A stretch of DNA of 56,996 bases from an uncultured Caulobacterales bacterium (GTDB lineage: Bacteria > Pseudomonadota > Alphaproteobacteria > Caulobacterales > Maricaulaceae), in the NCBI GenBank assembly GCA_964351895.1, contig CAYGQB010000001.1, forward strand, positions 1 through 56,996. Reading direction: 5' to 3'. Within the stretch, counting starts at the first letter, position 1. Every line of letters begins with the position of its first letter. Below are positions 34,540-45,312 of the stretch, piece after piece. The notes beneath the pieces are model-generated. The model had not been told where the DNA came from. It ran no database searches and saw only the letters and a program-made list of their open reading frames with translations. A program made the translations under genes and the position numbers.

Positions 34540-35868
34540 ATGATCATCGTTGATACGGCGTTGGCCAAGCGAGAAGCTGAGGGGCGTCCGATCAAGGTCG
34601 GCCTGGTGGGCGCGGGCTATATGGGCGCGGCCCTGACGCTCCAGATTGAAAGCGCGATCCCGGGCATGCAGGTGGCCGGGATCGCGGCGCGCCGCCCCGA
34701 CCAGGCCCTGGGCGCCTATGCGCAAGTCATGGACGCTGACCAGATCGCACGCCCCGACAGCATCGGCGCGATTGAAGACGCTATCGCGCGCGGTCAGCGC
34801 CTTGTCACCGATGATCCAACCGCCTTGGCGCGTGCCGAGGGTCTTGACGCCGTGCTCGAAGTCACGGGCTCAATGGACTTTGCCCTCAGCGCGTCCCGCG
34901 CCGCCCTCAGCTCCGGCAAGCACCTCATCTTGATGAACGCAGAGCTCGACGGCACCGTCGGTCCGCTTTTGGCCGAGTTGGGTCGGCGCGCTGGACAGGT
35001 GGTTTCAAACGCTGATGGTGATCAGCCGGTCGCGGAAATGAACCTGTTGCGCTTTGTGCGCTCCATTGGTCTCAAGCCCATGATGGCGGGCAACATCAAA
35101 GGCCTTCAGGATACGGATCGAAATCCTGACACCCAAGTCGCCTTCGCTGCAAAGTGGGGCCAGAAGCCCGCCAATGTCGCCTCCTACGCCGACGGCACCA
35201 AGATGTCGTTCGAGCAGGCGATTGTGGCCAATGCGACCGGCATGACCGTGGCCCGCCGCGGCATGCTGGGCCCCGACCCCACCGGCAAAGACCCCACCCT
35301 GCCCTTGCGGCCGATCGAGGAGTATCTGCCCCTCCTGACGCCGCATCTAGATCCAGACGGGCCTGGCCTGGTGGACTATGTCGTCGGCGCCAGCCCTGGA
35401 CCGGGCGTGTTCGTCATCGGCTACTGCGATCAGCCGCGCCAGCAACACTTCCTGCGCCAATACAAGATGGGCGACGGCCCGTACTACATGTTCACCACTC
35501 CCTATCACCTTTGCCATTTTGAGGCGCCGCTTTCCGTGGCGCGGGCGGTGGACTTCGGTGATGCGGGCCTGATGTCCCTGGGCGCCCCCCAGGTCGGCGT
35601 CGTGGCGACTGCAAAGCGTGACCTGAAGACCGGCGAAACAATCGACGAATTCGGCGGCTTTTTGACGTATGGTGAGGCTGAAACCAGCCCCAACATCGCT
35701 GCAGAACGTCTGCTGCCGATGGGACTGGCGCAAGGCGCGCGCATCGCCCGGCCCATCGCCAAGGGCGCCACGCTGACCTTCGACGATGTCACCATGCCGG
35801 CCCCGCGGGACATCGACATCGCCTACGCCGAGCAAGACGCCATGTTTCGCTTGTCGCGCACACCGTAG
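34540..35868 (+). CDS. homoserine-dehydrogenase-like NAD-binding oxidoreductase with C-terminal SAF domain
   Basis: N-terminal VGLVGAGYMG Rossmann motif, about 440 aa. The architecture is typical of SAF-domain oxidoreductases found in glycan-modification clusters. Confidence 0.6.
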   Translation: MIIVDTALAKREAEGRPIKVGLVGAGYMGAALTLQIESAIPGMQVAGIAARRPDQALGAYAQVMDADQIARPDSIGAIEDAIARGQRLVTDDPTALARAEGLDAVLEVTGSMDFALSASRAALSSGKHLILMNAELDGTVGPLLAELGRRAGQVVSNADGDQPVAEMNLLRFVRSIGLKPMMAGNIKGLQDTDRNPDTQVAFAAKWGQKPANVASYADGTKMSFEQAIVANATGMTVARRGMLGPDPTGKDPTLPLRPIEEYLPLLTPHLDPDGPGLVDYVVGASPGPGVFVIGYCDQPRQQHFLRQYKMGDGPYYMFTTPYHLCHFEAPLSVARAVDFGDAGLMSLGAPQVGVVATAKRDLKTGETIDEFGGFLTYGEAETSPNIAAERLLPMGLAQGARIARPIAKGATLTFDDVTMPAPRDIDIAYAEQDAMFRLSRTP

Positions 35869-36006
35869 GCGCGCGGGCGCCGAACTCAAAAGTGCGCAGT
35901 TCTTGCAAGCTGCGCTGCAACGCACACAGTGACGCAAGACGTGCGGTCTTGACGCCACGCCGCATGTTCCAAAGCAGCACCAAAATTAGAGAAAGGCGCG
36001 ATCGCC

Positions 36007-37296
36007 ATGGCAGACACCACCACCGCCCTTGAACGCGTCGCCGACGCGCGCGCTGCGAGCGCCGCCGCGCCGACATGCCGACACTGCGGCGCCGATCTGG
36101 TCACTGAGATTGTTGATCTGGGCCTGTCAGCGATCGCCAATGATTTGGTGTCGGCCGACAAGCTCAACGAATCTGAGCGCCTCTACCCTCTGCAAGTACT
36201 GGTCTGCGACAACTGCCATTTGGCCCAAACGCGGGACTTTGTGGTCGGCTCAGACGTCTTCACTGAAGACTATGTCTACTTCTCCTCCACATCCACGTCA
36301 TGGCTCAAGCACGCCGAGACCTATGTTGAGGCCATGGTGCGACGCTTCGGGTTCGGCCCAGAATCGCGCTTTGTCGAGATTGCTTCAAACGACGGCTATC
36401 TCTTGCAGTACATGAAGGCCCACGGCGTGGAGACGCTCGGAATTGAGCCCTGCCAGTCGGTGGCTGACGCGGCCATCGCCAAGGGCATCGACACCCGGGT
36501 CTTGTTCTTTGGTCGCGAGGCCGGCAGGGCGCTGGCCGCCGAGGGCTGGCGGGCGGACGGCATGGCCGCCAACAATGTGCTGGCGCACGTGCCCGACATC
36601 AATGACTTTGTCGGCGGGTTCCAAGAGGTGCTCGCGCCTGAAGGCGTGGCGACGTTCGAAATCCAGCACCTGATGCGCCTGATGCAGGGTCGCCAGTTCG
36701 ACACCGTCTATCATGAGCACTTCTCGTACCTCACACTGATCGCCGGCGAGAAGCTGTTCGCCAGCCAGGGCCTGCGCATCTTTGACGTGGAAGAAGTCAC
36801 CACCCACGGCGGTTCGCTGCGCTTCTTTGTCTGTCAGGACGGGGCCAGCCACCAGCCCACGCAGCGCCTGGCCGACGTGCGCCAAGCTGAACTTGACTAT
36901 GGTTTGGGCACGCCCGCCGCCTACACCGCCTTTAACGAAGAGGTGAAGGCCACCAAGCGCGCCTTCCTGAAGCTTCTGATTGAGCTGAAGGATCAGGGCA
37001 AGACCATCGCTGGCTATGGCGCGCCGGCCAAGGCGACAACGCTCCTCAACTATGTCGGTGTCGGCACCGACATGATCGACTTCATCGTCGACAAGGCGCC
37101 GTCCAAACAGAACCGCTGGGTGCCGGGCGTGCGGGTACCGATCCTGCCGGTGGAAGCCCTTTACGAGGCCAAGCCGGACTACATCATCTTGTTCGTCTGG
37201 AACCTCAAAGACGAGATCATGGCCCAACTCGCCGACGTGAAGGACTGGGACGCCAAGTTCATCTTGCCCCTGCCAGAAGCGCACATCGCCGAGTAG
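36007..37296 (+). CDS. SAM-dependent NDP-sugar C-methyltransferase (TylCIII-like, N-terminal Cys4 zinc ribbon)
   Basis: CRHCG...CDNCHLAQT zinc ribbon, class I methyltransferase core (VEIASNDGYLL), and C-terminal C-methyltransferase domain. Confidence 0.75.
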   Translation: MADTTTALERVADARAASAAAPTCRHCGADLVTEIVDLGLSAIANDLVSADKLNESERLYPLQVLVCDNCHLAQTRDFVVGSDVFTEDYVYFSSTSTSWLKHAETYVEAMVRRFGFGPESRFVEIASNDGYLLQYMKAHGVETLGIEPCQSVADAAIAKGIDTRVLFFGREAGRALAAEGWRADGMAANNVLAHVPDINDFVGGFQEVLAPEGVATFEIQHLMRLMQGRQFDTVYHEHFSYLTLIAGEKLFASQGLRIFDVEEVTTHGGSLRFFVCQDGASHQPTQRLADVRQAELDYGLGTPAAYTAFNEEVKATKRAFLKLLIELKDQGKTIAGYGAPAKATTLLNYVGVGTDMIDFIVDKAPSKQNRWVPGVRVPILPVEALYEAKPDYIILFVWNLKDEIMAQLADVKDWDAKFILPLPEAHIAE

Positions 37297-37342
37297 GGCT
37301 CGACAGATCGCCATCGATCTTGCGCGACCAGACACAAGCTTG

Positions 37343-37384
37343 AGCGCCTCCATCGCACGCGTGTGATGGAGGCGCTTCGTTTTG
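37343..37384 (+). terminator. intrinsic terminator after the C-methyltransferase gene
   Basis: AGCGCCTCCATC-(10 nt loop)-GATGGAGGCGCT followed by TCGTTTTG. Confidence 0.75.
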
Positions 37385-37458
37385 GGGGTCGTGGATTGTG
37401 TGGAATTGGCGTCGGGCGGAACTGGCCGCCGGGGCGCGGCGGGCTAGTTCTGCGCGCC

Positions 37459-38214
37459 ATGACACGCACTCCCAATCTGACACCCCTCGGCGACGGTCTG
37501 AACGTTCTTGTTTTCGGGGCAAGCGGCGGCGTCGGCGCGGCGATGACGCAGCACCTGGCGCGCGCGCCCGGCGTTGCGCATGTCACGGCCGCGTCTCGCA
37601 CGCCCGTTTCCGCGCCTTCGGACAAGGTCAGCGCCCTAGCGTTCGACCTTGCTGACGAAGCCTCCATTGCCGGGGCTGTTGAGCGCGCGTGCGCGCGCGG
37701 GCCCTTGCACCTGGTGGTGGCGGCGACCGGCGTCCTGCATCGCGGCGACGCGCTGGCGCCCGAAAAGTCGCTCAAGGCCCTAACGCCCAACGCCTTCGCA
37801 GAAGTCCTGGCCGTCAACACGATCGGCCCATCTGTCATCGCCAAGCACGCCCTGCCGGCGCTGGACAAGTCCCGCACGGCAGTGCTTGCCGCGCTCTCGG
37901 CGCGGGTCGGCTCTATCAGTGACAATCGGCTCGGCGGCTGGCACGCCTATCGCGCGTCCAAGGCGGCTCTCAATCAGATCATCCGCACCTGCGCCATCGA
38001 GCTGCGCCGCACCCATCCCAAGGCCGCCTGCATCGCCCTTCATCCCGGCACCGTCGACACGGATCTGTCGCGGCCCTATCAGCGCGGTGTTCCGGCCGCC
38101 AAGCTCTTCACCCCCGCGTTTAGCGCCGGCGCCCTCCTGGAGGTGTGCGCCCAGACGACGCCGGCGCACTCGGGACGCATATTTGACTATGCCGGACAGG
38201 AAATCGCGCCGTGA
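37459..38214 (+). CDS. SDR-family oxidoreductase (C-factor-like)
   Basis: FGASGGVG cofactor motif and YRASKAALN (YxxxK). Start set at ATG 37459. Confidence 0.8.
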   Translation: MTRTPNLTPLGDGLNVLVFGASGGVGAAMTQHLARAPGVAHVTAASRTPVSAPSDKVSALAFDLADEASIAGAVERACARGPLHLVVAATGVLHRGDALAPEKSLKALTPNAFAEVLAVNTIGPSVIAKHALPALDKSRTAVLAALSARVGSISDNRLGGWHAYRASKAALNQIIRTCAIELRRTHPKAACIALHPGTVDTDLSRPYQRGVPAAKLFTPAFSAGALLEVCAQTTPAHSGRIFDYAGQEIAP

Positions 38215-38231
38215 CGCCGGCGCCTCCCATG

Positions 38232-38266
38232 ACAAAAGAAAGGCCGCGCAACCAGGTTGCGCGGCC
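38232..38266 (-). terminator. intrinsic terminator for the Sel1-repeat gene
   Basis: GGCCGCGCA-(7 nt)-TGCGCGGCC. On the minus strand it is followed by TTTCTTTTGT. Confidence 0.65.
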
Positions 38267-38305
38267 GATCAGGTGCTCAGCAACTGTGGCGTGAAAGCGC
38301 CAGCC

Positions 38306-39103
38306 TTAGCTCATGGCGAACCAAGACCGTGCAATGGCTTGCGCATCCAGGATCGACTGAGTGGAGAGCCACGACTGTACGTCAACCCGGCGCGCCTGCG
38401 CATCGGGATGGTCACGTTCTTCAGCCAGGGTGAAAAGGGCGTGGGCGCCAATGCGGTCGCCGCGTGTTTCCAGAACTTCGCCCAAGGCAAAGATGGCGGT
38501 GGTGTCCCCAGCCCGCGCGCTGTCCGTCAACAAGGTCTCGGCGACCTCTAGGTCGGCTTCCACGCCGGCGCCCGTCTGATAGGCGAGGCCAAGGTAGGTG
38601 CGCGCCTGGATGTGGCCGGCGTCCGCCGCGGTCGCGAACCAGCCAGCGGCGGCGGTGTCATCGCGGATCACGCCAACGCCGCGCGCCAGCACCATGCCGC
38701 ACTGAAACGCGCCATCGGTGTCACCCGCCTGGGCGGCCTGACACAGGTAGGACGCACCGGCTGAAGCGTTTGCGGCAACGCCTTCGCCCGCCAAGGTCAT
38801 CAAGCCGATTTCACGCATGGCGACCGACGAGCCCGCCTCAGCGGCTTCGGCGTAGATGGCCGCAGCACTGGGGACGTTGACCGGCATGCCAATACCAAAG
38901 CGCGCCATGTAGGCGAGCTCTGCGCCCGCTTCTGCATCGCCGTTGCGGAACGCCTCATCAAAGACGATGGCGGCGGTCAGAAAGTCATTCTTGGCCAGAG
39001 CCGCGCGACCGGATTCAACCGTCGCCAGCGTGTCGATTGCCGAAGCGCTGGCGGCAAAACCAAGCGCGGCAACCGCGCCAATCAAGGTGCGGGTCATCAT
39101 CAT
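38306..39103 (-). CDS. secreted Sel1-like (TPR-family) repeat protein
   Basis: Signal peptide (LIGAVAALGFAASASA), then repeated A..W/Y...A...G...A....G blocks. GGGGGAG RBS before ATG 39103. Confidence 0.75.
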   Translation of the reverse strand: MMMTRTLIGAVAALGFAASASAIDTLATVESGRAALAKNDFLTAAIVFDEAFRNGDAEAGAELAYMARFGIGMPVNVPSAAAIYAEAAEAGSSVAMREIGLMTLAGEGVAANASAGASYLCQAAQAGDTDGAFQCGMVLARGVGVIRDDTAAAGWFATAADAGHIQARTYLGLAYQTGAGVEADLEVAETLLTDSARAGDTTAIFALGEVLETRGDRIGAHALFTLAEERDHPDAQARRVDVQSWLSTQSILDAQAIARSWFAMS

Positions 39104-39208
39104 GTTTGCTCCCCCAGAGCGTATAAAACCGGCGAAACGAGCCTGAGACGCGACAATGCAGGTTCCGGGCCGGGCCCAAGGAGAAACCCGTGTCAGGCAG
39201 GAGCGCAC

Positions 39209-39270
39209 GTGCAGCACAGGCGCCGTCTGGGAGAGGTGAGCGCTGGAGCGGGTGAAGGGCTCGAAATCTC
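39209..39270 (+). pseudogene. selD: possible 5' remnant of selD (start codon plus about 20 codons)
   Basis: AGGAG 5 nt before GTG 39209. Translation MQHRRRLGEVSAGAGEGLEIS resembles the SelD N-terminus (..RLT.YS.GAGCGCKIS), but the Cys/Cys/Lys positions read E/L/E. It runs straight into AT-rich foreign DNA. Confidence 0.3.
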
Positions 39271-39370
39271 AAATAAAAGCAATATATTTCCTTATCCTAA
39301 ATGTATTGCTGACGAAAATTGTTACACATTTTGTATCGCTATTGTTGCACAATATCCTTTGTATCCAGTC
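39261..39370. repeat. AT-rich block with iteron-like direct repeats
   Basis: Hand count gives 34 G+C in 110 nt against a high-GC background. ATTGTTNCACA occurs at 39318 and 39341. TGTATYSC occurs at 39302 and 39332, with a variant copy TGTATCCA at 39360. Confidence 0.7.
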
Positions 39371-39540
39371 GGGGCTGCGGCTCGCGCCGTAGTCGGTGTT
39401 TGTGGATGTTCGCCAGGTCGTGCCCCAGGGCGTGGTGTAGGAGCGTTGCCGCCTGAGGGTGGCTGGTCATCGCAGATCGTCGGTTAGGATCGGGTCGCTG
39501 AACCTAGACCACAACCGATGGTGACCCTCAATGACCAATG

Positions 39541-39630
39541 AGGTTCATCCCCGCGTGTGCGGGGAACGCTCCTCCCCGTCACTTGCCGGCTCATCCGTCA
39601 ACGGTTCATCCTCGCGGGCGCGCGAGAGAG
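39541..39630 (-). CRISPR. orphan type I-E-like mini-array: two 29-nt repeats flanking one 32-nt spacer
   Basis: The minus strand of 39541-39569 reads GCGTTCCCCGCACACGCGGGGATGAACCT, matching the E. coli I-E repeat at 23 of 29 positions by hand. The spacer is 39570-39601. The second repeat (39602-39630) keeps the CGGTTCAT end and a different 6-bp GC hairpin. Confidence 0.55.
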
Positions 39631-39777
39631 CGCAGAGTCCCTCGCGCGCCCGCGAGCGCTGCGGCTGGGTTGTGGCGAGCCCGGCGGCGTTCGCGTGAAC
39701 CGGGGAGCGACGCATTCAGATCGCATCAGGCGCGCTTGCCTGTAAGGCGGCGGTCCAGCAAGGGCTCCAACAGGGAG

Positions 39778-40368
39778 TTAGGAGCGTGAAAACGCGATCA
39801 GCGCGTCATAGTCTTCGCGATCGGCCCGCCGCAGGCCCTCCACATAGGCGCGCCGCAGATCATGGATGTCCGTCAGCGATCCGCCGCCCCAGGACCGAGC
39901 CGGCTCGCCAAGTCGGCGCAGGACAAGATCGGCCAACATGCGGGCGTGGCGGCCGTTTCCATTGGGAAACGGATGGATGTAGACCAGCTTGTGACGGACC
40001 CGGACAGCAAGCTCTGTCGGCTCATAGGTTTGATGTTCGAGCCCATAGGCGGCGTCTCCCATGAGCTGGCTTGTCTGCACGCCGATCATATGCGGCGCGA
40101 TGCCGATATTGCGTTCGGTGCGGCGATACTGGCCGGCCCATGACCACACATCACCAAACATGCGCGTGTGAAGCTGCAGCTAAAACTCAACGCTCATCAG
40201 GTCCGGCTTTCGCGATCGGTGGGCCCAGGCGGCGCCCTTGTCGATATTGTCCTGCTCGGCAGCGTTCAGATCGGCGCGTGTGGTCACCCAGGTCAGGCGT
40301 AACCCTTCGCGCTCATCCGGCGCCAGCGGCATGGCATCTTCTGGTTCCTGAAACAGGTCCGTCATCAC
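39778..40368 (-). pseudogene. Fic-domain protein ('mobile mystery protein B' type) interrupted by one in-frame TAG
   Basis: ORFs 40368-40180 and 40161-39778 are in the same frame, separated by TAG at 40180-40182 (..LMSVEF*LQLHTRMFGDVWSWAG..). The Fic motif HPFPNGNGRHAR is present downstream. Confidence 0.8.
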
Positions 40369-40697
40369 TCTTCCCAGAGGTCTCGATCGCGCAGCGTCTC
40401 TGAGATGAAGACCTGAATACGCTCCTCCAGATCATCATCCAGCACCTTCTGGTCTTCCATGGCCATGGAGTGCGACACGCCGCCGATCGCCTCCAGCGCC
40501 TTAGCGCGGGCCCGTTCGGCGACCATGTCCTCAAGCGGCTTGTTGGGCACGAGCGCATAGACCAGCTGGCAGTCGAGCGCAGCCGCCGCCTTGCGCAAGG
40601 TCTCAAGGCGGATCGCATAATTGGCTTCAGAACATTCGAGGCCGCTGACAGCCTGCTGTGTCACTTCCAGTCGAGCCGCCAACTGCGCCGCTGTCAT
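40365..40697 (-). CDS. XRE-type HTH protein ('mobile mystery protein A' type), probably 5'-truncated
   Basis: LGMTAAQLAARLEVTQQAVSGLE HTH and ALDCQLVYALVPNKPLEDMV. ATGA overlap with the Fic gene. No start codon upstream of ATG 40697 before the frame runs antisense into selD. Confidence 0.6.
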   Translation of the reverse strand: MTAAQLAARLEVTQQAVSGLECSEANYAIRLETLRKAAAALDCQLVYALVPNKPLEDMVAERARAKALEAIGGVSHSMAMEDQKVLDDDLEERIQVFISETLRDRDLWEE

Positions 40698-40732
40698 GCC
40701 AAGCCGGGCTTGGAGGCCCTGACCACGGGTCT

Positions 40733-40752
40733 GTCGGGCCTCGTCGGGCCTC
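40733..40752. repeat. 10-bp tandem duplication GTCGGGCCTC x2 at the junction between the HTH gene and the selD body
   Basis: Read directly. A related GGGCTCG lies at the left boundary (39256-39262). Confidence 0.8.
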
Positions 40753-41690
40753 GCCGGGCAGACGCGCGCCTGAGCGCGGGCGACGACGCGGCCCTGATCG
40801 CGGGGCCGGACGGGGACGATCTGATCCTCACCGTCGACCAGTTTCCCGCCTTTATCGCCGCCCCCTATCGGCTGGCCGAGATCGCCGCCGTGCACGCCAT
40901 GGGTGATGTCTGGGCCATGGGCGGGGCGCCGCAGACCGCCCTGTCGATCCTGGTCTTTCCGCCGCTGTCGGCCCGCCTGCAAGCGGAGACGCTGCGCGAG
41001 CTGACCGCCGGCGCCGAAGCGGCGCTGGGCCCGGCGGGCGCCGATTTGGTGGGCGGGCACACGAGCCAAGGCGAGCGGCTGACGGTCGGGTTCGCCGTCA
41101 CCGGACGGGTGAGCCGCGCCCAGGCCATGACCCTCGCCGGGGCGCGGCCGGGTGATCGGCTGATCCTGACCAAGCCGCTGGGAACCGGCGTACTGTTTGC
41201 CGGCGTGATGCGCGGGCTGGCGCGCGGCGCCTGGGTGGCGGCCGCCCTCGCCTCGATGCGGCGCGGACTGGGCGAGGACGCCCGGATTCTGCGCCAGGCG
41301 GGCGCGCGCGCCATGACGGACGTAACCGGCTATGGGCTGGCCGGCCACGCCCTGGCCCTGGCGCAGACGAGCGGGGTCGCTGCGGCGCTGCGGCTCCAAG
41401 ACGCCCCCGTCCTTGCGGGCGCGGCGGCGCGCGGGGTCCCGGGCGTGCGCCGCGCTGCGCCCGCCCGCCACGCCGCCCTGATCGAGGCGGGCGTGGCGCC
41501 CAGCGCAGCCGCCTCCCCGCTCTCAGCGGCCTTCTTTGATCCGCAGACCGCCGGTGGCCTCCTTGCTGCGGTGCCCGAGGAAGCGGCCGAGGACGCCCTG
41601 ACGCGCCTGCGCGATGCCGGCGTGACGGCCGCCATCGTGGACGAGTGCCTGTCCCTGATGGCGGGTGCCCCGCCGGTGCGCCTGCGCTAG
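40743..41690 (+). pseudogene. selD: selenide, water dikinase (SelD) lacking the N-terminal Cys/Sec-Lys loop and a start codon
   Basis: LVGPRRADARLSAGDDAAL..TVDQF..AMGG, GGHTSQG, LTKPLGTG, MTDVTGYGLAGHA and DPQTAGGLL track E. coli SelD from about residue 40 to the end. Upstream in-frame sequence is antisense to the HTH gene. Confidence 0.75.
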
Positions 41691-42760
41691 ACCGGAGCGA
41701 GCGCGAAGGCGCCCGCAACCGCGTCGGCGGCGGCGCGCACCGAGTCAGGATCGCGCGGATCGAGCGAGATGACGGCCCGCGCTTCGGGCTCGCCGGCGCG
41801 GGCGCGCGCATAGGCCTTGTCGTAGTGGGTCTCCAGCAGAGAGCTGACCAGAGGCGCGATCGCGCCGGACTGGGCGTGCTCCCGCCAGGCTTCCAGGCGC
41901 GCGCGCGGGTGAAACGGGGCCAGGGCGTTCAGCCGCGCGCTCAACCGGCCCGCGTCGGCGGTCAGGTGGGCATAGTCGCGCACGATTGCGCCCACGCGCG
42001 CTTCAAGCGTGGCGAACAAGACCACCCGCCCGCTCGCCTGCATGGCCCGCCACAGGCTGGGCGGAAGCGACACCCGGCCAAGCTGATTGGCCTCGGCCTC
42101 CACAAACACCGGGCGCTTAGGGTCTAACGCCGCCAGCGCCTGGTCGAGCCGGCTTTCAAAGAGCTTTTGCGCGGGCTGGGTGCGGCCCGGTTCAGCGCCG
42201 AACACCGAGCCGCGATGCGCGGCCAGCGCCTCCAGATCGAGGATTTGCGCGCCGGCCTCGGCGAGCGCGCGCAACACCAGCGTCTTGCCCACGCCCGTGT
42301 CCCCGTCCAGGCGCACAAGCTCGAGCGCCACTTCGGTCTCGTACAGGCGCTGCACCACCCCGGCCCGATAGCGCCGATACCCGCCCTCCAGGACCGACAC
42401 CCGCCAGCCGATCTCGGCCAGGATGGTCGCCATGGCGTGGCTGCGCTGACCGCCCCGCCAGCCATAGACCAGCGGTCGATAGCCGCCTGGCTTGTCGGCG
42501 AAGTGCCCCTCAAGATGGCCGGCGACCGCGCGCGCGATCAGGGCCGCCCCCAGCTTGCGCGCGACAAACGGATTGACGGTCTTGTAGAGCGTGCCGACCC
42601 GGGCGCGCTCGGCGTCGTCCAACACCGGCAGATTGATCGCGCCGGGCGCATGGTCGGCGGCGAACTCAGAGGGGCTGCGCACGTCGATGATTTCATCGCA
42701 CGCCGCGCCGGCTGGATCGAGCCGCGCCGCGCCTAGCTCATACACGCTGATCCCGCCCAT
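41687..42760 (-). CDS. selU: tRNA 2-selenouridine synthase homologue (rhodanese plus P-loop), with Gly at the expected catalytic Cys
   Basis: IDVRSPSEF..GA.NLP, YGWRGGQRS (E. coli has CCARGGQRS), GDTGVGKT, HRGSVFG. Start ATG 42760. Confidence 0.8.
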   Translation of the reverse strand: MGGISVYELGAARLDPAGAACDEIIDVRSPSEFAADHAPGAINLPVLDDAERARVGTLYKTVNPFVARKLGAALIARAVAGHLEGHFADKPGGYRPLVYGWRGGQRSHAMATILAEIGWRVSVLEGGYRRYRAGVVQRLYETEVALELVRLDGDTGVGKTLVLRALAEAGAQILDLEALAAHRGSVFGAEPGRTQPAQKLFESRLDQALAALDPKRPVFVEAEANQLGRVSLPPSLWRAMQASGRVVLFATLEARVGAIVRDYAHLTADAGRLSARLNALAPFHPRARLEAWREHAQSGAIAPLVSSLLETHYDKAYARARAGEPEARAVISLDPRDPDSVRAAADAVAGAFALAPV

Positions 42761-42936: not shown

Positions 42937-43521
42937 CTAGCCCTCGGTGGCTTCGGTCTGGATTTTCTCGTGCAGCCAGGCGGCGTGACGGGGGGCGCGG
43001 CGGGTGCGCGACCACTCCTCCAGCATCTCCGGCGCGACCCGGCGCAGCGCCGCCATCTGCTCGGGCGTGCCGGTGTTGCAGGCGAGTTCCAGCCGATGGC
43101 CGTTCGGGTCAAAGAAGTAGATCGACTTGAAGATGCCGTGATTGGTCGGCCCGAGGACATCCAGCCCATGCGCCTGTGCGCGCGCCTTGGCGGCAAGCAG
43201 GTCGTCCATGCTGGCGACCTTGAAGGCGATGTGCTGCACCCATTTGGGCGTCGCCGCGTCGCGCCCCATGACCGGACTGTTCGGCAGCTCGAGGAACGCG
43301 AGCACGTTGCCGTTTCCCGCATCCAGAAAGATATGCATGTAGGGATCCGGCGCCCCGGTCGAGGGCACGGTGTCCTCGGCAATGGCGAGTTGGAAGTCCA
43401 TGCCCAGCACGTCGCGGTAGAACGCCACCGTGGCCGCGGCGTCCTTGCAGCGATAGGCGACGTGATGGACCCCGTGCAGGGCCGGCGCGTCGGGCGCCGT
43501 GTTCGAGGTGTCCGCCATCAC
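42937..43521 (-). CDS. VOC-family (glyoxalase/dioxygenase fold) protein
   Basis: HHVAYRC...FY..VLGM and QHIAF.V...[10 protein letters not shown] motifs. Start overlaps the hppD stop (GTGATG). Confidence 0.75.
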
Positions 43522-44600
43522 GCGGTCTCCTTGGCGCCAACGACGCCGCGCTCGATCTGATCGTACTCGATGGATTCAAACAGGGCTTTGAAGTTGCCCT
43601 CGCCGAACCCGTCGTCGCCCTTGCGCTGAATGAACTCGAAGAACACCGGGCCGAGCTGGGGCTTGGCGAAGATTTGCAAGAGCAGGCGCGGCCCGCCCTC
43701 GGTTGTGCCGTCCAGCAAGATGCCGCGCGTCTTGAGCGCCTCGGTCGGCTCGCCGTGGTCGGGCAACCGCTCATTGAGCATGCCATAATAGGTGTCGGGC
43801 GGCGCGGTCATGAAGGGAACGCCGCGCGCCTTCAGCCGATCATAGCAGGCCTCCAGATCGTCGCAGATCAGGGCGATGTTCTGAATGCCCTCGCCATTGA
43901 AGGCGCGCAGAAACTCCTCGATCTGGCCCTCGCCGCCCTCGCCTTCTTCGTTCAGCGGAATGCGGATCTTGCCGTCCGGCGCGGTCAGGGCTTTGGAGGT
44001 CAGACCGGTATATTCGCCCTTAATGTCGAAGAACCGGATCTCACGGAAGTTAAAGAGCTTCTCGTAAAAGTCCGCCCAGTACTTCATTCGGTCCGAATAG
44101 ACATTGTGCGTGAGGTGGTCGATGAGCTTGAAGCCGGCCCCTTCCGGATGGCGCTCGACGCCAGGTTCATACACAAAATCAATGTCATAGATCGACAGAT
44201 CGTCGCCATACCGATCCACCAGATAGAGGATCGCCCCGCCAATGCCGCGCACCGCCGGCAAGCGCAACTCCATCGGACCCGTCTCCACCCGCACCGGCTC
44301 GGCGCCTTGGGCGAACACATGGGCGTAGGCGGCGCGGGCGTCGCGCACCCGAAACGCCATGCCGCACGCGGAGGGGCCGTGCTCGCGCGCGAGGTAGAAC
44401 GCCGGCGAGCCGGGCTCATAGTTGGCGATGAAGTTGATCTCGCCCTGGCGCCACAGGGTCACGTCCTTGGAGCGATGGCGCGCGATCTGAACCATGCCCA
44501 TGGTCGCAAACACCGGCTCCGGCACCCCCTTCTCGGGGGCGGAGAACTCGATGAACTCAAAGCCGTCCAGTCCGGCCGGGTTCTCGAACAGGTCTGCCAT
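43518..44600 (-). CDS. hppD: 4-hydroxyphenylpyruvate dioxygenase
   Basis: FEFIEF.....[20 protein letters not shown] and [25 protein letters not shown] motifs. GGGAGA RBS before ATG 44600. Confidence 0.9.
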
Positions 44601-44744
44601 GGCGCGTGTCTCCCTCGTGGTCGCGTCGCGCCCTGCGTGGGGCGCGCTCTTGAGTGGTCCGACCTGCACGCCAAGCGGCCTTCAGACCGCACTCAGGCGC
44701 TTGCGCACGGGCCGGGTGGCCGCATACTTGAGACTGACCATTTT

Positions 44745-44758
44745 GTTGTGATTGCAAC
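44745..44758. promoter_or_regulatory. imperfect palindrome GTTGTGATTGCAAC in the hppD-marR divergent region (candidate MarR operator)
   Basis: 10 of 14 positions are self-complementary. Ends 17 nt upstream of the marR GTG start. Confidence 0.25.
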
Positions 44759-44775
44759 TATCTTGAGGCTCGGTC

Positions 44776-45312
44776 GTGTCCCAGTCGCCGCCCCGCGCGC
44801 CCTCCGAGCCGACGCCGCCAAGGACGCGATCACAGGTCCCGGCCCAAACCCAGGTCCAGGCCCAGACAGAGCCGCCCCAAACTGCCGCGCCGCTGATCCT
44901 GGACGAGGCCTGGATTTACAAGGTCACCGTGCTGGCGGATCGGGTGGCGCGCCGCATCGCCGAGACCGTGCAAGGCGTCAGCGCGCTCAATCTGAGCCAG
45001 TGGCGCGTGCTGGCGGCGGTGGCGGACACGCCCGGGCGCACGGCCAGCCAGTTGGTCGCGGTCACGCCCATGGACAAGGGGATTGTCAGCCGCGCCGTCG
45101 CCGCCCTGGTGGCGGACGGGCTGCTGGCGCGCCAGGCTTCGACCTCGGACGCCCGCTCGGCCCACCTGCACCTGACTCCGGCCGGCGCGGCCGTCTATGA
45201 CGCCATCATTGCCGCGCTCAGAGCCCTCGGCGCCACCGGCGACGGCGCCCTGTCCGCCGCCGACGAGCGCGCCTTTCTGGCCCTGATCAATAAGGCGATC
45301 GAGCGCTACTGA
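44776..45312 (+). CDS. MarR-family transcriptional regulator
   Basis: Winged-helix core LSQWRVLAAVADTPGRTASQLVAVTPMDKGIVSRAVAALVADGLL...D.R...L.LT..G. GTG start with a Pro/Gln-rich N-terminal extension. Confidence 0.8.
   Translation: MSQSPPRAPSEPTPPRTRSQVPAQTQVQAQTEPPQTAAPLILDEAWIYKVTVLADRVARRIAETVQGVSALNLSQWRVLAAVADTPGRTASQLVAVTPMDKGIVSRAVAALVADGLLARQASTSDARSAHLHLTPAGAAVYDAIIAALRALGATGDGALSAADERAFLALINKAIERY

Follow-up and report, generated by a model that had tools for sequence, protein, structure and literature searches.

The 56,996-nt stretch of DNA analysed here (called the window below) makes up positions 1 to 56,996 of contig CAYGQB010000001.1, assembly GCA_964351895.1, from an uncultured bacterium of the Caulobacterales. 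On its + strand it carries a selD-like reading frame that ends at 41690, and this frame is followed by a convergent selU/mnmH, the gene for tRNA 2-selenouridine synthase. Together the two are probably what is left of a decaying selenouridine cassette, in which a truncated gene for an Ndh-SelD fusion protein (an oxidoreductase domain joined to SelD) stands beside the debris of mobile DNA and a selU that is dead for selenation. The original prediction, made from the letters alone, described the same region as a selD split in two, with about 1.5 kb of foreign DNA in the place of its catalytic N-terminal loop. The gene is indeed truncated at its 5' end and does lie beside DNA derived from a mobile element; the two pieces, in our judgement, are not halves of one gene.

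The SelD remnant, a pseudogene of an Ndh-SelD fusion, extends from 40698 to 41690 on the + strand and consists of the SelD (AIRS/AIRS_C) domain only, which begins at the Ala-Lys of the C-x-x-C-x-A-K loop and ends with the stop codon. As predicted, the frame runs without interruption to 41690. It is of the SelD type, with 237-239 bits against TIGR00476 (cut-off 125), the profile search proposed for the body having returned 239 bits, and both PF00586 (AIRS) and PF02769 (AIRS_C) are matched. The ATP/metal site has kept all four of its Asp-containing motifs (GDDAA, TVDQF, GDVWAMGG and MTDVTG). Among solved structures, SelD from E. coli (3U0O, E = 4e-35) and Aquifex (2YYE, E = 1e-31) come closest. 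Homology to SelD sets in at 40692-40704, about 14 codons 5' of position 40743, where the SelD body had been thought to begin; with tblastn, 15 of 15 relatives align from 40692. The residues LVG, which had been matched to LLVG of E. coli SelD, really belong to a segment of the fusion type (...GL.GL..P.R.D....GDDAA). No relatives were found that naturally start near 40743 without a Cys or selenocysteine (Sec) loop.

TIGR00476 calls for a Cys in the catalytic loop, and in the window the native Cys codons are deleted (the E. coli equivalents of the loop residues are C17 and K20). In E. coli, SelD with the change C17S is inactive (PMC3956282). The loop had been reported as lost together with its Lys; the loss holds for the Cys codons, and the Lys codon is retained as AAG at 40701-40703. 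The frame is open from 40404, and the only in-frame starts available to it are GTG 40470 and TTG 40710. A Shine-Dalgarno motif is found at neither, which agrees with the predicted lack of a proper start codon, and public gene callers place a 326-residue protein here, from TTG 40710. With no promoter, ribosome-binding site, start codon or catalytic Cys, the remnant cannot make selenophosphate. Its conserved positions have also eroded: it departs from the consensus in 4-6 of 66 columns with at least 95% conservation, and no other sequence of the set has a higher number.

The remnant belongs to a kind of gene that is already known, the Ndh-SelD fusion. Zhang et al. (2008) found CxxC in all fusions that they detected, and such fusions amount to about 40% of the Cys-type SelDs in the Global Ocean Sampling (GOS) marine metagenomes (PMC2398784). 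Among 80 related genomic loci, all those with more than about 42% identity to the remnant have 287-763 further open codons 5' of the aligned part. At the point corresponding to the junction these relatives share the motif PxCGG|C[AG]AK[PV]G, and the window has ...LRR|CHAKPG. C-[GA]-[GA]-C is present in 60 of the 60 relatives that align from residue 1, whereas the window reads L-R-R-C-H-A-K. An exhaustive HMMER search of 1.84 billion cluster representatives gave as the best non-self match P0259, a fusion of 708 residues (55% identity, 286 bits), and the top 150 matches were mostly proteins of 700-780 residues, aligned from about residue 405 on. For example, a relative from Actibacterium scores 508 bits against TIGR03169, the model of the N-terminal domain, and 287 bits against TIGR00476. 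Both this protein (415 bits) and the remnant (154-157 bits) stay under the 700-bit threshold of TIGR04369, a model labelled 'fusion_not_SelD'.

Trees place the remnant among the fusions. It is sister to P0259 in 87 of 100 bootstraps, then joins 72 fusions of the Rhodobacterales type, and beyond these it groups with further CxxC-type sequences. A clade bounded by two fusion groups, with the stand-alone SelDs outside, contains the remnant in 93 of 100 bootstraps. Sites diagnostic for the fusion as opposed to the stand-alone consensus give the same picture, the remnant having the fusion state by 14:4, 11:1 or 8:0 depending on the threshold. So does gene order. Of 55 selU-bearing relatives, 53 have selU immediately after the fusion gene and convergent with it (in L026 and L039 it is on the same strand), and none of the stand-alone SelD loci compared has a convergent selU. 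In the window the stop codons of the remnant and selU overlap at 41687-41690, with the two genes convergent as in the fusion relatives. A two-gene unit of Ndh-SelD and selU is common in marine alphaproteobacteria.

The N-terminal TIGR03169 domain itself is absent, with no match anywhere in the 57 kb when 15 full-length relatives were used as queries in tblastn (E < 10). By parsimony, the ancestor of the remnant would have been an Ndh-SelD fusion of about 730 residues. Since the remnant is nested among such fusions, the missing part would come to about 410 codons, for the TIGR03169 oxidoreductase domain, the linker and the CxxC motif, and not to the 40 or so residues first estimated.

Two other sets of observations concern this comparison. 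An initial tree had put the remnant as sister to all sampled fusions (96 of 100 bootstraps), which left the ancestral state open; the addition of more distant fusions and of P0259 resolved it. Several 'short' SelD entries that might have been natural stand-alone forms within the clade turned out to be fragments at contig ends or to carry Ndh-linker sequence. Among the stand-alone relatives, seven SelDs (L071, L073, L074 and L076-L079) are of the Sec type, with an in-frame TGA at the catalytic position (G-U-A-G-K). These come from Planctomycetota, Chloroflexota, Marinimicrobia and others.

The edge of the remnant is a deletion junction, at 40692-40704 (TGTCATGCCAAGC), where the + strand reads C-H-A-K and the - strand L-G-M-T. 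The in-frame sequence upstream had been recognised from the start as the antisense of a helix-turn-helix (HTH) gene. This gene encodes mobile mystery protein A (XRE-type HTH; 40368-40712, - strand), which covers positions 34-150 of the 150 in TIGR02612 and has lost its first 34-38 codons. It scores 122.3 bits, just under the TIGR02612 cut-off of 122.6, and is not a full-length match. When it was aligned with four plasmid homologues, each of 153 amino acids and full length, ALGMTG was unvarying in the four. The codons TGT CAT GCC AAG (40692-40703) are read in the same register on both strands. At the junction the SelD relatives have GCC AAG CCG GGC, and the antisense of the mobile mystery protein A of Neorhizobium has GTCATGCCAAGCG. 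The seven nucleotides GCCAAGC (40698-40704) fit both parental gene families, so a crossover inside this microhomology may be supposed. The TGT at 40692 is then the antisense of a Thr codon of mobile mystery protein A, and not the codon of a catalytic Cys.

Both genes are truncated at the 5' end and joined head-to-head, and for this reason we infer a single deletion between divergent genes. The ancestral locus would have had ndh-selD (TIGR03169 plus a SelD with CxxC) and then a convergent selU/mnmH, and this unit would have stood head-to-head with a mobile mystery protein A/B module (HTH + Fic). One illegitimate deletion, with its crossover within GCCAAGC, could have taken away the start of the HTH gene (34-38 codons) together with any DNA that separated it from ndh-selD, and about 1.2 kb of ndh-selD itself, a part that held both Cys of CxxC as well as the oxidoreductase domain and the linker. 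The rhodanese catalytic Cys of selU (TGC to GGC) would have been lost afterwards or already before.

The same architecture is found in public Logan assemblies from two sequencing runs, ERR3534969 and ERR3534965. The Logan contigs cover 35261-42309 and 38772-42210 and differ from the window at seven sites, all of them inside the SelD remnant and none at the junction. Since these contigs match the window at the junction, the architecture is not an assembly artefact. A chimeric assembly of a genome that in reality has an intact gene might be suspected from the very high GC (guanine plus cytosine) content, from the fact that public assemblies break in selU at 42282-42309, and from the seven clustered mismatches between the window and the public contigs. 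Against this, the contigs from the two runs are identical to the window across both junctions, and a chimera is extremely improbable.

Over 7 kb the Logan contigs depart from the window at these seven sites only, all within 39 nt (41431-41469). Each of the seven substitutions is non-synonymous. Six of them have G or C in the window, and the Logan version is closer to the family consensus than the window version. Either the sequencing went wrong here, in very GC-rich DNA, or mutations have clustered locally.

The partner gene has kept its length and lost a critical residue. selU/mnmH (41690-42760, - strand) matches positions 16-349 of the 357 in NF008752 with 432 bits (cut-off 266). It is full length, has GGAGG before its ATG, and retains an intact Walker A motif, GDTGVGKT. 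Its rhodanese motif is YGWRGGQRS, as against YCWRGGQRS in 55 of 55 relatives. The Gly is residue 100, encoded at 42461-42463 (GGC on the - strand, a change from TGC to GGC), and the same Gly is found in three further public assemblies. In Salmonella MnmH the residue C97 is absolutely required for selenation and dispensable for geranylation, which needs the Walker motif (PMC4830565). The window SelU departs from the consensus in seven of 83 columns with at least 95% conservation, more than any other of the 56 sequences compared; these comprise 5 of 44 columns in the rhodanese part and 2 of 39 in the P-loop part, which is not a significant difference (p = 0.44).

As far as can be read from the sequence, both genes of the selenouridine pathway are disabled, and the trait looks dead. 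The original prediction took the disruption to be recent. This is doubtful: because the Cys of selU is lost and the erosion of conserved columns in both genes is the highest or tied for highest when set against 55-58 relatives, the damage is probably not very recent. A more speculative view, and one that we think unlikely, is that the SelU with Gly is a natural geranylation-only enzyme, which would place geranyl on the 2-thiouridine of tRNA and carry out no selenation. The intact Walker A motif and the full-length frame would suit such an enzyme, and the spread of changes between the rhodanese and P-loop parts lends it little support. If this were true, the lineage would have kept one of the two activities of SelU after discarding selenophosphate synthesis, and the natural Cys-to-Gly SelU would be a way to test the selenium-independent role of the geranyltransferase activity.

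Several public assemblies of the organism break inside the same 28 nt of selU (42282-42309). The shared breakpoint points to a strain variant or to a branching assembly graph.

It may be asked whether the SelD fragment is still a working enzyme. Translated from GTG 40470 it would have 406 residues, the first 74 of them the antisense of the HTH gene, with a fortuitous C-H-A-K at the place of the loop; from TTG 40710 it would be a loop-less protein with some other role. The frame open from 40404, the 330 codons without a frameshift, the four intact Asp-containing motifs and the C-x-A-K spacing regenerated at 40692-40703 are what such an enzyme would call for. Both starts, however, lack a ribosome-binding site, and nothing resembling a promoter is found close by. 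The Gly-rich loop is missing, as is the first Cys of CxxC, the sequence departs from the family at four positions of at least 95% conservation (among them the Asp of the DP motif), and 7 of 7 differences between the window and the Logan contigs are non-synonymous. The only client nearby, SelU, has lost the Cys that it needs to use selenophosphate. No natural relative begins at this place, given that the short entries are contig-end fragments or bear the linker. A functional fragment is thus very improbable, and the truncated fusion gene remains the preferred reading.

A number of observations weigh against that reading. The 330 codons of the remnant contain no frameshift and no stop, although this is weak evidence in DNA of 76% GC. 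When genomes were scanned with the fragment for an orthologous locus still intact, no match exceeded 53% identity. A search of 5.8 billion proteins gave the same strain (98%) and then 52%. The next SelD after that of the organism's own strain is just 52-55% identical. For the neighbouring Sel1-repeat gene, homologues had at most 35% identity, a metagenome scan gave none, and a look-up returned the same contig only. The collections contain no close relative with an intact locus, and the ancestral arrangement is therefore reconstructed and not observed. The SelD trees, moreover, were made by neighbour-joining on simple distances. The remaining points of this kind concern a peptide encoded 1.5 kb to the left of the remnant, at 39209, which the original prediction took for the N-terminus of SelD.

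This peptide (39209-39271, + strand) begins with GTG, and has AGGAG 5 nt upstream as was first noted. Its place is the 5' region of the Sel1-repeat gene, which is divergent from it. When 114,000 six-frame windows are ranked by their match to the stand-alone consensus for the segment before the catalytic Cys, the first 10-11 residues of the peptide (RRLGEVSAGAG), with the spacing RL...S.GAG, come 2nd-3rd; in a comparison with seven stand-alone SelD N-termini the whole 21-mer comes 22nd of 114,000. An order-2 Markov null predicts 0.07 such matches per 1.5 kb, 0.023 when a start codon is demanded as well, and 0.00075 when a start and a Shine-Dalgarno-like motif are both demanded; these expectations are post hoc. 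The peptide also ends almost where the right-hand fragment begins, as would be predicted for a split gene.

A split gene would have had the following history. An unbroken stand-alone selD beginning MQHRRRLGEVSAGAGC.AKPGLE... (start at 39209, MQHRRRLGEVSAGAG, then C-x-AKPG...) would have been cut between codons 15 and 18, and a 1.44-kb foreign fragment (39254-40697) captured at the break with the loss of about two codons. The start codon is at the right distance, with its AGGAG, and the left and right pieces join to 347 amino acids, the usual length of SelD. Compared with E. coli SelD alone, the left piece is the best 16-mer of the window, with a score that is equalled in 13% of simulated 57-kb sequences. 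On the other side, the body is nested among fusions, both its sister P0259 (87 of 100) and the next clade out being fusions. Position -3 to the catalytic Cys, a Cys in 60 of 60 members of the fusion clade (CxxC), is Gly in the peptide. The left piece is unlike the fusion linker (ranks above 790), and its continuation, E-G-L-E, has neither Cys nor Lys. It matches no Pfam or NCBIfam model, and a Pfam search with the short frames of 39200-39800 was likewise empty. The supposed insert stops in the middle of a gene and shows no termini of an element, and the capture of a fragment is rarer than a deletion. As a pattern, the likeness to a SelD N-terminus is genuine and greater than chance would readily produce, but it is a likeness to stand-alone SelDs, another kind than that of the body. 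We consider a split stand-alone gene unlikely. Because of the Gly at -3 and the lack of similarity to the linker, the peptide is judged to be unrelated to the remnant, and the two pieces not to be halves of one gene. An argument from GC at third codon positions (0.62-0.67 in the 39209 piece, 0.885 in the body) was dropped, as the first 15-21 codons of other genes have 0.6-0.8.

The DNA against which the remnant lies is foreign, as predicted, and derived from a mobile element. The 1.5 kb between the peptide and the remnant is not a discrete insertion: its right end lies within a gene, and no transposase, terminal repeats or target-site duplication was found at its edges. Two sequences had been put forward as possible scars. 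GGGCTCG occurs 18 times in the window, and the GGGCCTCG pair (40736, 40746) lies inside conserved SelD coding sequence, so that neither serves as one. Apart from the truncated HTH gene, the 1.5 kb represents older remains of the variable region in which the whole locus lies, namely an AT-rich stretch, a CRISPR (clustered regularly interspaced short palindromic repeats) remnant and a Fic gene with an in-frame stop codon.

The Fic gene encodes mobile mystery protein B (Fic/DOC; 39778-40368, - strand), which has homology over its full length; TIGR02613 matches the C-terminal 127 amino acids with 168.9 bits, and PF02661 is also matched. An in-frame TAG at 40180-40182 divides the gene into 62 and 127 codons and is identical in the public contigs. 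The Fic motif HPFPNGNGRHAR is present, as seen in an alignment with the homologue from Bradyrhizobium. Pairs of mobile mystery proteins A and B are found on many rhizobial conjugative plasmids, with 65-68% DNA identity. Downstream of Fic, the Bradyrhizobium plasmid has a hypothetical gene that is missing from the window.

The remnant of a type I-E CRISPR array occupies 39542-39631 on the - strand. A 32-nt spacer separates its single perfect repeat (39542-39570) from a single degenerate one (39603-39631), and the two are spaced 61 nt apart. The degenerate repeat overlaps a 19-nt inverted repeat that is 95% complementary (39611-39629 / 39638-39656). An exact 26-mer of the repeat is found in more than 120 metagenome contigs, in arrays with a 61-nt period and up to 205 copies, and blastn matches are to arrays. 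No cas genes were seen among the annotated genes of the window, which was not scanned exhaustively for cas. The AT-rich stretch (39272-39350) has 27-29% GC in a genome of 66% GC, which agrees with the low-GC DNA that had been reported after the frame at 39209. Within it are an inverted repeat of 12 nt (39278-39289 / 39299-39310) and the one sequence of the region that matches a sigma-70-like promoter. Rfam gave nothing above chance for the whole window or for 39100-39800, and a tRNA search was also empty.

In base composition the cassette of selD remnant and selU (40698-42760) differs from its surroundings: its GC content is 72-76%, and that of the DNA on either side 62-69%. The difference points to a horizontally acquired cassette whose donor had a higher GC. 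The organism is a Hyphomonas-like alphaproteobacterium. MarR, HPPD and VOC (42937-45312) are syntenic with Hyphomonas (L090-L093), and the VOC protein is 85-87% identical to Hyphomonas proteins. In Hyphomonas, VOC is followed by the gene for fumarylacetoacetase, and in the window by selU. The rest of the tyrosine-catabolism operon of Hyphomonas (fumarylacetoacetase, CoA transferases, aminotransferase) is absent from the window. Nothing else is common to the two, and an attempt to set the boundaries of the island by synteny with Hyphomonas failed, as just these three genes are shared.

The meaning of the locus is mainly corrective. What appears to be a gene split by an insertion is all that remains of a far larger fusion gene. 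Annotated as 'SelD', as it is by public gene callers and would be by an automatic pipeline, it would wrongly mark the organism as a user of selenium. The locus also offers a view of the selenouridine trait partway through its loss, with the gene for the selenium donor truncated and the tRNA enzyme intact but for its catalytic Cys.

Each part of the locus can be set beside a known system. Stand-alone SelDs such as those of E. coli (3U0O) and Aquifex aeolicus (2YYE/2ZOD) have the same AIRS/AIRS_C fold family, and their Asp motifs are kept in the remnant. The remnant is just 32-40% identical to them, however, has the fusion state at the diagnostic sites, and lacks any Cys/Sec loop. Ndh-SelD fusions are 41-55% identical to the SelD domain of the window and share with it the segment after the loop, AK[PV]G...P.R.D....GDDAA. 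In contrast to them, the window has neither the oxidoreductase domain nor the linker, the CxxC or a start codon, and what it holds is a non-functional 3' remnant. The mobile mystery protein A/B pairs of rhizobial plasmids (TIGR02612/TIGR02613) show the same order and the same overlap as in the window, where A is truncated at its 5' end, B contains a stop, and no plasmid or integrative-element genes lie nearby. Orphan or degenerate type I-E arrays are the counterpart of the CRISPR remnant, whose repeat is identical to that of many arrays with a 61-nt period; the window has just one perfect and one degenerate copy of it. For SelU the counterparts are the C97A and C97S mutants of Salmonella MnmH (Jäger et al. 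2016, PMC4830565). The SelU of the window carries a natural substitution of the same Cys and, here too, the Walker A motif is intact. It differs from those mutants in that the new residue is Gly and that the change arose naturally, beside a dead selD.

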